Shown here: positions 29,011 to 36,688 of the stretch, piece after piece | Position numbering within the stretch: the first letter of the stretch is position 1 | Layout: each line of letters begins with the position of its first letter | From: Neophaeotheca triangularis | Lineage: Eukaryota | NCBI GenBank assembly: GCA_054600435.1 | Contig: BAAIJX010000030.1 | Location: forward strand, 124,001-188,000 | DNA: 64,000 nt | Reading direction: 5' to 3' | Program-made: the position numbers and the translations under genes | The notes under the pieces: generated by a model | What the model was told of the DNA's origin: nothing | The model's database searches: none | What the model saw: only the letters and a program-made list of their open reading frames with translations

Positions 29011-30028
29011 GATGGAATGCGGTTGGACAGATTGCGAAGAACAACGATGTGCGTGACGAGGTGCAAGGTGGAACACGCTTGGAAACGGGCAGACTGCGGA
29101 TCACGACGATTTGCGTTGCGTGGCGAGGCTACTTGCAATTCCATTCAGGGTGATTTCTCAGTGCTACCATGTAACAAGGGGATCGGGGGACCAGTTCATT
29201 AGACTTCGAGGTCTCAAGCACGATGCTAAATGGCCTGAATAGTTGCACAAGCGCAAGGTTGATGCATTGTACTCTCGTAGAAGCAAATACTCGAAAACGA
29301 AACACGTGAAGACCAAGGCCAGCAAATACCTGTTTCACCGTGATGTTGCTGTCGCTTCATCTCCAAGTTTTCAGAGATAGCGAGCGATACAGCTGGAAAG
29401 CATGCCAGGCCAAATGGGAAGTACAAGTCGCGATACATATAACTTCCAATTGTTTGTTGCAGTCCCTGTGTATCTGCAACGCCGTACTAAAGAGTAGCTC
29501 GCAACGAAACTTTCGGATTGACGTTCGTTTCTGAGTAGGTACAAACACGGCGACACTGAACTCGCAATGGATCCAGCTTGTTAGTATTATTGCGACATCA
29601 AAAGCTCGCCGCCGGAACGGCGGTATAGGTACTTTGTGATTCACCATATCAGGCGGGCGACGAACAGAACATTTCCTACACCTCTAGCGAGGAATCGAGA
29701 ACAACAGCTGAAGTGAAGACAAAAGTTGCCTAGGGTCCCCACTTCTCCAGTGCAGCTCACCTCCGCATTATTACGCACAAAAAGGTCAAAGCACTGGACC
29801 CGTGGACCTGTGGCTCCTGCGCAAGCAAGCCAGCTTCAGTAGTACCTCACCAGCCATCCTCTTCTTCTTTCCTCTTTCTTCCCGCTCTTCACCCTTCTCA
29901 CACCACACTCCAAACCATTGCAGCTCAGTCGCAAATACTTGGCGACCTCATCTCTATCATCAAATTTACCGCGCAAGCTCCATACGCGCCTTTAACCACC
30001 GCCAAGCCTCACTGTTTCGCGGACCGCA

Positions 30029-30960
30029 ATGGCAGACAACAAGGAAATCAAGGAGGGCGATCAAGGTACGTGACTCGATGCGCTACGAGTCGCCTGAGTT
30101 TTTGCGACCCGCGCGCGTTTTTTCCAGGCCCCAATTCGCCCTTTTCATCCGAATCCCCCACGACCTTAGACGCGTCTCCTCTCGAGTGGCGGCCTGAGGC
30201 ACATATCCTACCTCGACCAATCACGTGGCTTCCCTTCCGTTGCCAATGCTTCGCCTCCTTTCCGCGCCATTGGAAGTGTCTGCTAACGCGTGAGCGACGC
30301 GTAGTCTCCTGGTCATGGGGCGGTGGCCAGCCTGGCGGCGAAGCCGTTGAGGTTGCTGAAAAGGGCGAGATTGCCATCGAGTCCAAGAAGGGCAACACCA
30401 TCAAGAAGAATGCCGATCCTGAGAACCCGGCTGTGCACGTTTCGCGCGAGGGCAATGATGTCGTGAAACGCGCCTCTGAGCTTGAGGTCGAGGAGGAAGG
30501 CGACAAGCATAAGGAGGGCGGGGACGACAAGAAGGAGGACGGCGAGGGCGAAGAGAAGGATGAGGGAGAGCAAGGGAAGAAGGACGACGACGCCGAGAAG
30601 AAGGACGATGATGCTGAGAAAAAGGGCGGTGAAGATGAGAAGAAGGAGAGTGAGGAGAAGGAGAGTGAGGAGAAGGAGAGTGAGGAGAAGGAGGATGACG
30701 CGAAGACTGGCGAGAAGCGCAAGGCCGAGGATGACGCTGAAGCCGACGAGGGTGCTTCGGACGCAAAGAAACAGAAGAGCGACGACGAGCCCAAGGCCAA
30801 TGGCGAGGAGAAGTCCGCGCCGAAGAAGAAGGGACGGCCTGCGAAGAAAGACGCCAATGGCAACGCCAACGAGAAAAAGGAGTCAGCCAAAAAGAAGGAG
30901 CCCAAGAAGGCCGCTACCGCTACCGGCGAGCCTAGGCGTAGTGGCCGCAACAGGTCGTAG
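30029..30960 (+). CDS. Hva1/TUDOR-like (DUF2945-type) protein with acidic EKES repeats and an AT-hook-like tail; intron 30066-30304
   Basis: MADNKEIKEGDQ|VSWSWGGGQPGGEAVEV...ESKKGNTIKKNADPENPAVHVSREGNDVVKRASEL; KKKGRPAKK. Confidence 0.8.
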
Positions 30961-31566
30961 GGTTTGCGCGGTCATTCGCGTCGCTTTAACCCGGCATGCG
31001 CGAGTAAGCGCGACGAGGTAACGATGTGAGCGATATCGATAAGTTACGGGTATGGTGGGTCGGGTGGATCGAGTGGCGCTATCGGATGGAAATGGAGGAT
31101 CGAAGGCAGTATCTAGGGGTTATTGCCTCAAAAGCAGCTTCACTATGCCAGTCCGGGTTGGTGTATAGTACCTACTGCCATGCCTTTTGCAGGAGATGAT
31201 CTCTATCAAGTGTATTTTCACGCTTTCAATTTTCTCGTCAAACTCTATGTCATTCCCCTCGATATCCAGGTACATGAGGTTCCTAGGTAGTTAGGTATCT
31301 TATTTGGCGTTCAATACCTACGTCTACACTGCGTTGGCCCGTGCACACAAAGTAATATGGCGAGGCGAATGCTTCAGCTTCACATCTGATGTTTGAGTCA
31401 ACAACAACACAGCCAGCACACCCTTGAAAGTAGCAAGCCAAAGCAAAAAGTGATTCCCAGCTCTCAACTGTGTCACTCTTACTCAACAAGCTAAGTGAAA
31501 GCATAACTTGCTGTCTGAACAACTCGTCCAGCCGCCAAATTTCATCTCCAAACCACTACCTCAAAA

Positions 31567-33274
31567 ATGAAGACGGACAATTACATGACGCACTGCCTTG
31601 AGCAGGCCGCTAAATCCCCTCTTCACTACCGCCATGGCGCGATTGTCGTTCGCGGCGGCAAGATCATCGGCCAGGGCTACAACGACCACCGCTCTAAGTA
31701 CGACGGCGGCGCCCTCAAAAATGGTCGCATCGCGGGCAGCGCTCTCCACGGCGCCGCTATGGCCGAGCTCAAGGAAAAGCTGAAGAAGCAGAAAAAGTCT
31801 TCGCCGCAGCCGCAGCCGCAGCAGTCGCCAAGCAAGTCCTTCACACCCTTCGAGGGCACCGGCGGCGGACCTTCAGCCAACGGGCCTCTCAGCATGCACT
31901 CGGAGATGATGGCGCTCAACTCTGCCCTCGGCGCTTCCTCAACCATGGCCTCCAGCACCTTCTCGCAGGAAAAGCCGTGCTTCAAACTACCGGGTGGTCA
32001 TGGTAAACGCAAATCGCGACTACGCCGTGAGGCGCTCGAGCAGTACGTGCGCGAGATTTGCGCGACCGTCGCACCCGGGTCTGCGGCCGGTAGCGCGGGG
32101 TGGCAGGTTCAAGAGTGCGGTTTTGAAGCTTCCGCACTTGGACGCGGTGAGGCGGACGAAGGACTCGGGCAACAATCGGCACGAGTACGAGGGAAACAAC
32201 AACGAGGAGTACAAGGCGGGCAACAACAACAGAAGGTTAGAGAAGAAGGCGCTTGCAGGTCCTCTTCACAGGGGTCGCGGGTTTCAGGCTTCCCTGGGTG
32301 GCGGGAAACATCACAGTCATCAGAACCGGAAGCAGAAACAGAACGGGACACAGAACGAGAGTGTAGGTCACAAGTATCAGAGTCAATACTCGTACGGCCT
32401 TTCTGGACAACAACAGGTGTCACAACAGAGACAACAGCGATCGCTGTCTGAGTCTAGGACGAAGTGTGAGCCACGCAAAGATGCTGAGTTGACGAGTTAT
32501 GACAACGGTAACGATCATGATAATGGTATGAAGGATGTTCCGAAGGCAGCAGCGCCGAGTCAGGGCAAGCCACAGAAGGACTACAAACGGGTAAGTCATG
32601 ATGCCATGTACAGAAAAGGGTCACTTGTTAACGCAACTCAGTCTGGAAAGATGAAAGCACGGTCGCCAGAGCCTCCACGGCCAGAGCCAATGCTGCTACC
32701 AACCGGCCAGGCATCGCACAGTTTGAGCGACCGCAAGAAGCATCCCCGCCTCAATGGCGCAGACCTCTACGTCTGCCGCTTAGGCTGGCCCAAGGGCAAC
32801 ACGGGCGATACAACTAGCAAGAAAAAGTCTCAAGGAGCCAGTGGCACCCTCCCAACCCAGCCCACAGTCAACGAGCAAAACGAAAACGCTATTGCGGGCT
32901 CTTCAAGTTCAAACACTATCTCGCCTGCTCGTTCCTTGCACGACGAACTCACGTGTACTGCCACTGCACCAGCCGAGAGCTCTCAGCCCGCTGGCAAGTC
33001 GACCGGCGATGTCAGCCACGGCGTTCGGGCCTCAAGACCGTGCTACCGTTGTATCGCTTACATGCATTCAGTAGGCATCAAGCGCGTGTTTTGGACCACC
33101 GACGAGGGGACGTGGGAAGGGGGAAAGGTTAGGGATTTAGTTGACGCTTTGGAACGGTCTTATGAGGGGAGTAAACAGGGCGAGGATGGTAAGGAGAATG
33201 GGATTCTTGGAAACGGTGTCTTCGTTACGAAGCATGAGGTTTTGATGTTGAAGAGGATGATGGGGGATGGATAG
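31567..33274 (+). CDS. Cytidine/dCMP-deaminase-like zinc enzyme with a large low-complexity insert; frame 1 N-half joined to frame 2 C-half (candidate intron 32043-32106; in-frame intron 32591-32641)
   Basis: Frame 1: CLEQAAKSPLHYRHGAIVVRGGKIIGQGYN...SMHSEMMAL. Frame 2: RLNGADLYVCRLG...SRPCYRCIAYMHSVGIKRVFWT. Second intron GTAAGT..GTTAAC..CAG, 51 nt. Confidence 0.8.
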
Positions 33275-33764
33275 TAGGATGTAGAGAAGTCCATGTCTAC
33301 GTTTCTTGCCTCCCCCTTAGGACCCCTGCGACTTCCGAAGTTAATCCGGTGTTGCGACTGCAATTCATCTTTCGTAATTAACACCATGAGTTAGCATCGG
33401 TGGAACATCAAGACTCATCGAGTTCAATTGTCAAGCGCGCCTCATACGATGTCTTCTGCAGGTTATTGAGGCTAGGTGCTTCGTCTTCAAGATCGATATC
33501 GACCCGGTTCCTGGATCGCTGCAGACCGGGGGTTTAAAGGTACAGCTACGTCACGCGAGCATCACTTGACCTGGCAGGCCCTTCGAGGCATCCACCTCCT
33601 GGAAGTGGGACATGGATTACCCCTCCCCCTCCTATAACAGCCACAATCAAAATTTCCCCTTCTCTTCACACAAAGCCCTCAGCTTCAATCAGTACAGCAT
33701 CAAGCTACCATAAACCAAACGTCTCTACCAAACCAACCTCCAAACCCCCCCACATCTACACAAC

Positions 33765-34791: not shown

Positions 34792-36501
34792 CTAAAACGA
34801 AACATCCCCTCCAAAGCCCACAGGCCGTCTCCTGGCCCCACCCTCTTTACTAGGCGTATGCGGCACAATAGCCATGACCTGGTACAACCGCCCCATACCA
34901 TGCGGTCCTGTATCTACCAACCTCTTCCAACCCCCCTCAACCCTCTTAACCAACTCGGTCAGTTTCTCCTTCTCACCCTCAACCCCACCACCTCTCTCGC
35001 GATCCACAGCCCGCTTGACAAGCTGCGCCACTCGCTCCTCGATACCCATAGCCGCCAAAAACCGTGCCTGGTCGACGGGGCCATGCACTTCGACGCCAGG
35101 GGAGGCATTGATGGCGCTCTCGGCCAGAGCGATGAAATCCACGTCTGCGGAGATGTCGGTCGTGCCTGGCGAGTCGAGTGGAGAGACGCGGGTGTGGGAT
35201 TTGATGCCGCGAAGCGAGTTGGTGGGGATGGTTGCAGGTGGACCGTAGTCGATTATCAGCGCTGCGCCTGAGGGCTGGGGTTTCAGGACCGGTTCTTCGA
35301 AGGGTTTGGAAGGCACTTTGCGGCCGCTCGAGGGTGATTGTTGGGGGTTAGGGGAGGGTGGGTTGGAGCCACCAAGGCGGATGGCGAAGTCGCGCGTGTA
35401 GGTTTGGCTTTCGGGGCTGATTTCTATGGTGGCGCCGTCGGTGTTTTTGAGGGCTTGGTACCTGGCTGAGGTCTCGGGGAGGTAGAGGGAGTGCGGTGTC
35501 GAGGCTTTCGCCATTGTTAGCTCGAATTCGGGTTCACCTTGTATGAGTCTGTGTGGGGGCTTGGGCGAGACGACTAGTTCTCGCCATTGGTGTTGGCGGG
35601 CCGCCGAGGGCAGTCGTTTCGGAGCTGGGATCGGGCCTGTTGGTGTTTGCAATGTTGATGAGTCTTCGCTCGACTGTGGTGCAGGGGGTACAGCCTGGAA
35701 AACGTGAATTGGCAGAGCGTCGAAGAATTCGTGGGCGACGATGAAGGGTGTCTTGCTTGCTTCCTTAGGTACGAAGCGGACGTCTTCGGTCCATACGATC
35801 TTGAGATCCTTGGAGTGCTGGCTGAAACTTTGGTATCCGGTCTCGGTCTGCTGAAGGGGGTTGTCGCCACACAGACGCTTATGTTGCGCCTCTCTCAGAT
35901 TAGGGCTGGACTCGACCAGGTAGACCGCCTCAATGGCTTTTGCAAAGGCTGGAAAATTGCGAATAGTCTGTCCTCTGGTCAGCGTAAAAGCCTCAGTATC
36001 GCCTCTCTATCCGCAACTCACCCGTAGCATGTCATCCATTAGCGTTCCCCTTCCTGGCCCTACTTCCATCAAATGCACGCCCTCGCTCTTTCGACCCTGG
36101 GCAATCCATTCAGCAACAACCCACACCCCTATCAGCTCTCCAAACACCTGTGAGATTTCGGGAGACGTCACGAAGTCGCCTTTGACACCGAACTGATCCT
36201 TCTCACTTCCAGTTGTAGACGTATAGTATCCACCCAAGTCCGAGGTGAGGCATTGTCGCATGTAGGAGGCCACTGGGATCGGCCCAGTAGTCTGGTCCCA
36301 TTTTAGCAATTTGAATAGATACTCGGTCTGACACATACGTACTGTTATGGCCTCAGCTAGTTGTCTGGCCAGAGGTGTCGACCACTTGTGCCCTTCTTCT
36401 GTCGAGCTCCATCTTGCGCCGGAGACTCGGCACCTCCTAGTATTGAACTGCCCTACATTACGAGACAGCTGCCTCGCCGTTCGAGCGAAACTGCTCCTCA
36501 T
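34792..36501 (-). CDS. NDUFAF7: Mitochondrial protein arginine methyltransferase NDUFAF7/MidA; exons 36501-36343, 36291-36022, 35967-34792
   Basis: GPIPVASYMRQCLT, GDFVTSPEISQVFGELIG, EVGPGRGTLMDDMLR, AHEFFDALP, IIDYGP, DISADVDF, GMGRLYQVMAI. Confidence 0.92.
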
Positions 36502-36688
36502 ATTATATGACCGAAATCCAATTCGAGATTGAATATGGACAGAGAAAGTAGTTAGAAGTTCGAAGTTCACAGTTCGAAGTGTGAAGTCTGAGATGCGTGA
36601 AGCTCGGAGCTTCTCTTCAACTCGAACCAAAGCAACAATTTGTGGCAGATCGACCAACCCCCCTCGACAAGACCAATTTCACTTCACA

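Follow-up and report, generated by a model that had tools for sequence, protein, structure and literature searches.

Known cases of a fungal chromosomal gene that depends on programmed ribosomal frameshifting are very few, going by passages of the papers cited here (PMC12719033; PMC3777964). For Saccharomyces cerevisiae, passages of a 2025 paper give ABP140, EST3, OAZ1 and YFS1/YPL034W as the chromosomal genes with a programmed +1 shift, next to Ty1 and Ty3, YFS1 being the fourth chromosomal gene of baker's yeast found to need such an event (PMC12719033). In the filamentous ascomycetes, the Rab-GDI displacement factor gene PaYIP3 is described in excerpts of two papers as having frameshifting that is conserved in Pezizomycotina (PMC3777964; PMC5009743). 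Here we describe a gene for a putative zinc deaminase of the cytidine deaminase (CDA) fold that occupies two long overlapping reading frames in a 64,000-nucleotide (nt) stretch of the fungus Neophaeotheca triangularis (contig BAAIJX010000030.1, positions 124,001 to 188,000 of the forward strand), which is called the window below and in which all positions are counted from its first letter. Our reading is that the gene makes two products and that a +1 ribosomal shift at 31981-31990 gives rise to the longer one, and we put the probability of this whole model at roughly 0.55.

The arrangement resembles the yeast cases in several respects. As presented in the passages of PMC12719033, the second open reading frame (ORF) of the yeast +1 genes and of Ty1/Ty3 is in +1 and has no start of its own, and the site is conserved across species, as it is here; the shift is taken to occur while a peptidyl-tRNA occupies the P site and the A site contains a zero-frame codon that is decoded slowly, as is proposed here; and the argument for YFS1 was made from a synonymous pattern that changes frame at the site, which is also the argument used below. 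Unlike the yeast sites given there (CUU_AGG_C, CUU_AGU_U, GCG_AGU_U and GCG_UGA_C), the motif in the deaminase gene is AAA_CTA_C-like (PMC12719033). The gene also differs from the yeast cases, as those passages portray them, in that the zero frame runs on for about 155 codons past the site under selection and would be dual-coding, a property known here from sequence alone, and in that the shift divides two catalytic motifs of one enzyme domain.

PaYIP3 is, like the present gene, a cellular gene of filamentous ascomycetes that has short and long products, the long form needing a frameshift, and that has long been conserved; in Capnodiales and Ophiostomatales it has the +1 configuration, as here (excerpts of PMC3777964 and PMC5009743). 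In the same excerpts its extension is a poorly conserved C-terminal ORF and not the second half of a catalytic domain, and the gene family is a different one; unlike PaYIP3, the deaminase gene is without a supported RNA structure. No description of frameshifting in this deaminase family was found in the open-access literature searched, which is consistent with the statement, made in an earlier sequence-only reading of this DNA, that the expression switch is undescribed.

Two overlapping frames and their conservation

The ORF map of the window bore out the sequence-only reading in its main points: the two zinc-ligand motifs, HxE and PCxxC, lie in two overlapping frames, neither ORF alone holds both of them, one +1 event is needed to join them, and the default product is a 294-amino-acid protein lacking PCxxC. 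The stretch in which both frames are open extends from 31910 to 32451 (542 nt). The codon counts reported earlier were reproduced exactly, with 28/30 codons of frame 2 ending in G or C between 32140 and 32230 (10/30 in frame 1) and 22/30 codons of frame 1 doing so between 32011 and 32100.

A protein search with the frame-2 part gave 415 proteins at E <= 0.001 among 4279 candidates, and a search with the frame-1 exon gave 189 proteins at E <= 1e-5. Scanning of metagenome contigs yielded 122 confirmed relatives, 80 of which were kept; the subsets used below comprised 44 unique loci, 43 unique loci and 37 loci. The end of exon 1 and the start of FKSAVLK could be placed by tblastn in 29 metagenome loci and in the window, and the second half was in +1 in all 30 of these sequences. 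The gaps between the placed halves were 52, 64, 67, 73, 82 or 97 nt, all of which are 3n+1, and the length differences in the junction segment were all multiples of 3. More distant loci gave the same two-frame readings. Annotated full-length models of about 450-570 amino acids came from Dothideomycetes, Leotiomycetes, Sordariomycetes and Lecanoromycetes (the class was checked for four relatives). A conserved overlap across Pezizomycotina, which had been named as a check, was found in four classes, and orthologues with one continuous frame, set beforehand as the outcome that would speak against the arrangement, were looked for among the relatives and not found.

The frame-1 tail was stop-free for 18-119 codons past a near-invariant 21-nt block in 37/37 loci (synonymous resampling P 0.000-0.16 per locus). 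Downstream of the ORF1 stop, a T-ending frame-2 codon stood before an AA, AG or GA codon in 199/1115 cases, a frequency that would give frame-1 stops about every 15 codons. Because the second half is in +1 in all 30 placed sequences and the frame-1 tail is unusually stop-free, the two-frame arrangement is neither chance nor an assembly error. The same architecture was present in dozens of independent assemblies of four fungal classes, which contradicts the 1-nt assembly error considered earlier and, together with strong purifying selection on both halves, also speaks against a decaying pseudogene or another assembly artefact.

The annotated models disagree with one another at the junction: some read EVLKQ|FKSAVLK, some stay in frame 1 through YV..VC...VQECGFE and then jump later, and some enter frame 2 much earlier. 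Such a spread is what predictors would be expected to give without a real intron. Among the matches listed, the models of at least about 450 amino acids were all from NCBI annotation, and the gene calls on unannotated contigs gave the two ORFs apart, the longest having at most 433 amino acids.

Two loci had additional features. In locus L051, exon 1 was interrupted by an additional intron of 64 nt, AT-rich and with a branch-point-like motif, and the +1 arrangement was still present further on. In the diverged locus L069 the NSGEK motif was in the exon-1 frame, whereas relatives read NSGEK in frame 2; a further frame change lies somewhere in its low-complexity middle, with an intron, an indel and an assembly error as candidate causes.

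Table 1. Positions of the features of the two-frame deaminase gene in the window
Feature	Position	Strand	Remarks
ORF1	ATG 31567 to TGA 32449-32451	+	Frame 1; 294 amino acids; default translation product; N-terminal CDA-fold half (beta1, beta2, HSE helix), conserved basic helix, VQECGFE motif, low-complexity tail
HSE (HxE) zinc/catalytic motif	31897-31905	+	Frame 1; within SMHSEMM
Frame 2 (+1), stop-to-stop open	31910-33274	+	454 codons
Hyperconserved block 1	31969-32028	+	Frame 1 EKPCFKLPG..KRK[S/A]RLRR with rare A-ending codons; frame 2 ..NYRVV..N.NRDYA.
Candidate +1 shift site TTC_AAA_CTA_C	31981-31990	+	AAA (K140) in the P site, CTA the zero-frame A-site codon, TAC (Tyr, 31988-31990) the first frame-2 codon
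Portion of the trans-frame product coded in frame 2 before intron 2	31988-32590	+	Overlaps ORF1 to 32451
Earlier-proposed intron GTACGT...GGCAG	32043-32106	+	64 nt, 3n+1; better read as frame-1 linker QYVREICATV...GWQ, also open in frame 2
21-nt block, contains GGT_TTT_GAA (32119-32127)	32107-32127	+	Frame 1 VQECGFE, frame 2 FKSAVLK; rival shift site
ORF1 stop TGA	32449-32451	+	Same place in many relatives, where frame 2 reads S-A-S-K
Ordinary spliceosomal intron (intron 2) GTAAGT...TTAAC...CAG	32591-32641	+	51 nt, in frame, no stop, 43% G+C
Last exon	32642-33274	+	Frame 2; with ADLYV and PCYRC; stop TAG 33272-33274
ADLYV	32759-32773	+	Frame 2
PCYRC (PCxxC)	33038-33052	+	Frame 2

The candidate shift site and the downstream 21-nt block

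Block 1 lies 90-153 nt upstream of the 21-nt block among the loci, measured from its AAA. Analysis of its codons revealed CTA in 29/29, CGA in 24/29 and 28/32, and AAA in 24-30 of 28-34, whereas upstream of the site CTA made up 11/500 of the Leu codons (25/500 for CTA and TTA together), CGA 20/258 of the Arg codons and AAA 61/435 of the Lys codons. In frame 2 these rare codons spell N-Y and D-Y-D, the latter from frame-1 CGA_CTA_CGA, so that frame 2 would dictate the choice of frame-1 codons downstream of the site. The synonymous fractions at frame-1 K, P, F, K and L were 1.0, 1.0, 0.73, 0.78 and 0.54 (in this count the search pattern itself required K and P; a pattern-free count gave K 34/35 and P 35/35). 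They fell to 0.04, 0.00 and 0.08 at the next three frame-1 codons and were 0.73, 0.83 and 0.80 at frame-2 Y, R and V, the signal crossing from frame 1 to frame 2 at TTC_AAA|CTA.

The zero-frame codon following the lysine ended in A in 43/43 unique loci (CTA 31, TTA 6, TCA 3, ATA 1, CAA 1 and CCA 1), and the codon before it was AAA in 38/43, AAG in 4/43 and GAA in 1/43. Frame-2 stops were located 9-18 codons upstream of the site in 6 loci. Between the site and the 21-nt block frame 2 was stop-free in 37/37 loci (resampling P(open) 0.18-0.93 per locus), with a sum of log10 P(open) of -8.0 over loci that are not phylogenetically independent; the interval just upstream of the site was null-like, with 32 open versus 26.6 expected. 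Translation in frame 2 appears to begin at 31988, since the synonymous signal crosses over, the A-ending codon is kept and the stops bracket frame 2 at this site. The sequence-only reading had placed a +1 ribosomal shift near GGT_TTT_GAA: the type of event is favoured by these results, and the location is not, as frame-2 constraint already starts about 135 nt upstream. It is probable that the two frames are joined by a conserved +1 event at the ribosome.

At TTC_AAA_CTA_C, the most likely shift site, peptidyl-tRNA-Lys would be held on AAA while a rare codon ending in A stands unread in the A site, and TAC, which overlaps that codon in +1, would be decoded in its place. A fraction of the ribosomes would in this way shift by +1 and go on in frame 2, and after removal of the 51-nt intron they would reach ADLYV and PCYRC; the resulting trans-frame product of about 551 amino acids would be the sole product with a complete zinc site. 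Ribosomes staying in frame 1 would make the 294-amino-acid protein, consisting of the HxE half and the frame-1 tail, so that one fungal gene with two long overlapping frames would give two proteins sharing their first 140 residues. We infer the ribosomal nature of the event, its efficiency and a function of its own for ORF1.

An independent start for the second frame would make a shift unnecessary. ORF1 and ORF2 would then be translated separately, ORF2 from an internal transcript or a non-AUG start, and would assemble as a split deaminase. Both frames are open and constrained over the long overlap, in keeping with this, and the prokaryote-style gene calls on unannotated contigs that give the ORFs apart fit it as well. 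A conserved frame-2 ATG between the bracketing stop and the conserved part was sought across the loci and not found, the frame-2 constraint begins at a shift-like site and not in a start-like context, and ORF2 alone is without beta1, beta2 and the HxE helix; translation as two separate polypeptides is very unlikely.

A second candidate location for a +1 shift is TTT_GAA_N (32122-32128) in the 21-nt block, in which case all ribosomes would be in frame 1 up to VQECGF(E). No other DNA of the region is as conserved as this block, which was matched with at most 5 mismatches in 70/81 sequences, being in phase with frame 1 in 69/70. Of the 11 sequences without a match, 5 (L002, L030, L059, L071 and L079) end at or just past exon 1, and L058, L062 and L066, which were checked and are diverged, have diverged versions of the block. 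At its CAA, TTT and GAA codons the third base does not vary; only 6 of 72 conserved-residue columns behave in this way, and these codons account for 3 of them (counted in 35/38 loci, the other three having been dropped where extraction met a stop). At base 15 all four bases occur without a change of the frame-1 residue. From base 29 onward, counted from the block start, the frame-2 signal is unambiguous, with a His synonymous fraction of 0.88; third-position G+C flips from frame-1 to frame-2 phase at the block, and reading TTTG as one step results in a continuous 568-residue protein. With AAAC or CTAC read as one step, each reading ran into another in-frame word downstream, and no clean one-step translation resulted from either.

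Such a shift would leave unexplained the frame-2 Y-R-V signal at 31988-31996, the fixed rare CTA and CGA codons that give D-Y-D in frame 2, and the absence of frame-2 stops from 31984 to the block, with stops just upstream. It would also have tRNA-Phe re-pair from UUU to UUG, and GAA is no rare-codon candidate. A shift in the 21-nt block is therefore unlikely, and the block is better read as doubly constrained coding sequence (VQECGFE / FKSAVLK); double coding alone can explain its invariance, which under the two-product reading would be due to this double constraint. Long-range pairing of block 1 with the 21-nt block, seen by eye, was not kept in the clade with the variant block and was rejected.

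Downstream of the candidate site at 31981-31990, the motifs K-R-K-x-R-L-R-R (block 1b) and Y-V-x-x-V-C retain frame-1 synonymous variation, and both frames appear to be dual-coding for at least 140 nt. The gene appears to make two products, namely the 294-amino-acid protein without PCxxC and a trans-frame protein with the full CDA fold. Two products with a dual-coding overlap are the simplest reading because frame-1 constraint and openness continue past the site.

The ORF1 stop in many loci of different clades sits at frame-2 S-A-S-K or A-R-K (window 32440-32451), where the codon before that Lys always ends in T (TCT, CGT or CAT), as though it were the stop that is retained. A +1 shift at this stop codon was considered and rejected, the position and context of the stop differing among clades and even between the close relatives L039 and L003/L014.

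In most loci the distance from AAA_CTA downstream to the rare codons CGA_CTA_CG(A/C) (window 32017-32025) is 30-36 nt, or roughly the footprint of one ribosome. Such a spacing could be a chance outcome of frame-2 D-Y-D coding, or the codons could be a stall site that places the trailing ribosome on the shift site. In yeast, as passages of one paper have it, +1 frameshifting at inhibitory CGA codon pairs is linked to collision and stalling, and the error is suppressed by Mbf1/Asc1 (PMC6301793). By comparison, a leading ribosome stalled on CGA_CTA_CGA could hold the trailing ribosome at AAA_CTA; in those passages the yeast shift is an error and not programmed, and here the spacing argument is inferred and the codons are also explained by D-Y-D. 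It is a doubtful extension of the model that the gene carries an ancient translational switch, acting on a single mRNA and present in at least four Pezizomycotina classes, in which a stall of the leading ribosome on CGA_CTA_CGA would trigger the AAA_CTA shift and so choose between an inactive half-deaminase and the full enzyme, with a dual-coding overlap of about 155 codons and products that might pair like active and inactive deaminase subunits.

Splicing and the RNA-library evidence

Removal of 32043-32106, which the sequence-only reading had put forward as one way of joining the frames, would give EQ|FKSAVLKLP. The wider form of this explanation is that the segment works as an intron in this species, or that each lineage has its own weak or non-canonical intron. 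The window does have a consensus 5' site, a terminal CAG and a length of 3n+1, L049 has an equivalent pair, and the models of two annotated relatives (P0014 and P0015) carry exactly the 32042/32107-type junction. A search of the 44 unique loci showed that a GT[AG]NG[TC]...YAG pair ending at the junction was present only in the window and L049 (2/44) and that the AG before the junction was present in 21/44. Candidates of this form with a length of 3n+1 in the permitted range were absent from 25/44 loci and present in some form in 19/44. The GTACGT of the window arises from CAG_TAC_GTG, and most relatives have C before TAC.

The composition and coding of the segment also differ from those of an intron. 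A branch-point-like CTRAY ([CT]T[AG]A[CT]) was sought in the last 48 nt of 32043-32106 and not found, and the G+C content of the segment is 73% compared with 43% for the intron at 32591-32641. In frame 1 it encodes Y-V-x-x-[VI]-C, which is conserved with synonymous changes and with indels in multiples of 3, and in the AlphaFold model a helix (residues 147-168; predicted local distance difference test score (pLDDT) about 70) crosses the proposed 5' splice site. Removal of this segment as the mechanism of the family was thus not borne out, and across the loci compared no conserved intron joins the two frames.

RNA evidence was available from three runs with small shares of the window (0.08, 0.06 and 0.05), comprising five contig records of low depth. 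The contigs were colinear with the genome over 31865-32014, which includes the shift site, 32083-32286, which includes the 21-nt block, 32206-32356 and 32693-32843. No spliced joint was seen in the covered parts (31450-31801, 32015-32082, 32357-32692 and 32844-33350 were uncovered). The contig from run X2 was colinear from 32083 across 32106/32107 at a depth of 2, with just 24 nt on the upstream side, and so runs unspliced from within the segment into the next part. The uncovered 32015-32082 leaves some room for splicing; with this contig, the disagreement of the gene models and the results for the 44 loci, joining of the frames by splicing is improbable.

An RNA-level change of a single base, by editing or polymerase slippage, would join the frames without a shift of the ribosome. 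The one observation in this direction is a 151-nt contig of run X1 (depth 2), in which an A is inserted behind 31903, within the HSEMM codons, and which has a G>A difference at 31974. The inserted A would move the frame in the wrong direction, and its place is upstream of the stop that brackets frame 2; either an error or a difference between strains is the probable cause. No indel was seen in the contigs that cover the two candidate sites, and there is no long homopolymer. An RNA-level change is, like the pseudogene or artefact dealt with above, extremely unlikely. The RNA contigs fit, weakly, an unspliced and unedited message at both candidate sites. A further X2 record (record 3), in which just 18-21 nt pieces of a 2375-nt contig matched, was taken as unrelated.

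Other joining mechanisms were examined and rejected. IRE1-type unconventional splicing was ruled out as the loop sequences vary, and transcriptional slippage would have had merely 3-5 identical bases to act on. The last base of a possible 22-nt GT...AG micro-intron is not conserved, and 22 nt is too short for a spliceosomal intron.

The intron at 32591-32641 is of the ordinary kind. Orthologue models read KDYKR|SGKM, without the 17 residues that it would encode, and the frame offset between the parts flanking it differs among loci. Its retention would merely insert 17 residues, and the annotated orthologue P0037 retains an equivalent insertion in its model.

Several observations weigh against a +1 shift at 31981-31990 with two products. 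At the site itself, the P-site codon varies (AAG in 4 loci, GAA in 1), re-pairing of tRNA-Lys on AAC/AAT is poor, so that a simple slip is not obvious, and that CTA and the remaining codons ending in A are decoded slowly is an assumption drawn from codon usage. Locus by locus, the openness of frame 2 upstream of the 21-nt block is unremarkable, and the block itself carries some synonymous signal in each of the two frames, which makes a shift there possible. The only RNA structure predicted was a hairpin of 4-5 base pairs (TTCAA/TTGAA) in the block, with a consensus energy of about 0 to -1.4 kcal/mol and no covarying pairs. In the overlap the substitution phase is nearly flat (188, 168, 136), from which the switch is not placeable, and both frames are weakly constrained, the frame-1 value of about 0.72 being no better than an off-frame control of about 0.75; a further control region (region D), affected by intron 2 and by frame changes beyond it, was left out of this comparison. 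The ORF1 stop moves in some clades, which stop earlier. A perfect GTACGT and a CAG are present in the window, which makes splicing possible in N. triangularis alone, and the RNA contigs are few, of low depth and may contain DNA. The case for a trans-frame protein and for ribosomes in frame 2 is an indirect one.

Fold of the putative deaminase and meaning of the arrangement

Comparison with Pfam PF00383 gave 23.8 bits for ORF1 alone, below the 25-bit cut-off, no match for the frame-2 parts, and 29.9 bits for the trans-frame reading (P0121). An AlphaFold model was made from a 48-sequence alignment headed by the 568-residue TTTG reading; its mean pLDDT was 55, with 312/568 residues below 50. The modelled CDA core comprises beta1 (22-29), beta2 (32-38), the HSE helix (110-124), beta3 (398-406), the PCYRC helix (493-502), beta4 and beta5, and is built from residues of both frames. 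H111, E113 and PCYRC are invariant in the 48-sequence alignment.

A Foldseek search of the whole model against the PDB gave no match at E <= 0.001. A VIA-align wide search against 48,161 chains revealed CDA-fold deaminases at all of ranks 1-24 (Z 8.8-5.3), with alignments spanning residues 1 to about 530. The best match was 3dmo_A, with a Z of 8.8, a root-mean-square deviation of 4.4 and 109 aligned residues; a Z near 8 is middling on VIA-align's own scale. The best sequence match among solved structures was the TadA structure 2nx8, which is weak (E 0.031). Both halves would be needed for the fold, because the VIA-align matches span both frames and only the trans-frame reading passes the PF00383 cut-off.

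By motif, PF00383 score and modelled fold the predicted protein would be a member of the CDA-fold zinc deaminase superfamily, with PCxxC in the same polypeptide if the proposed shift takes place. It has in common with TadA/ADAT2, dCMP deaminase and cytidine deaminase the HxE and PCxxC motifs and, in the model, the beta1-beta2-alpha-beta3-alpha-beta4-beta5 core. Unlike in these deaminases, the HxE helix is separated from beta3 by about 270 residues, most of them disordered, and a further 85 or so separate beta3 from PCxxC. The putative deaminase fits no particular CDA subfamily by these comparisons.

The neighbouring genes in the window, which encode TFIIF-alpha, a Hva1_TUDOR protein, a Methyltransf_28 protein and a kinase, are all ordinary fungal genes. 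The upstream Hva1_TUDOR gene (29734-30960) has tandem repeats in its C-terminal part (30491-30693), made up of GAG/GAA/AAG-rich units of 15-24 nt, across which several off-frame ORFs are open on both strands. The Methyltransf_28 (PF02636) gene, on the minus strand between 34792 and 36678, is split over two adjoining ORFs, with profile positions 1-39 in the ORF 36010-36678 and 39-248 in the ORF 34795-36006; the split at about 36006 is most simply an ordinary intron or phase change.

The public gene models of this deaminase family are mutually inconsistent at the junction and are probably wrong in most genomes. If the two-product reading with a shift at 31981-31990 is true, the family would be a new frameshift gene family conserved across four classes, with a shift motif unlike those of yeast. 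A long stretch would be under selection in two frames, and as the shift falls between the halves of the catalytic zinc site, the efficiency of recoding would set the amount of active enzyme. Should the stall-triggered switch also be true, enzyme output would track tRNA supply or ribosome traffic.

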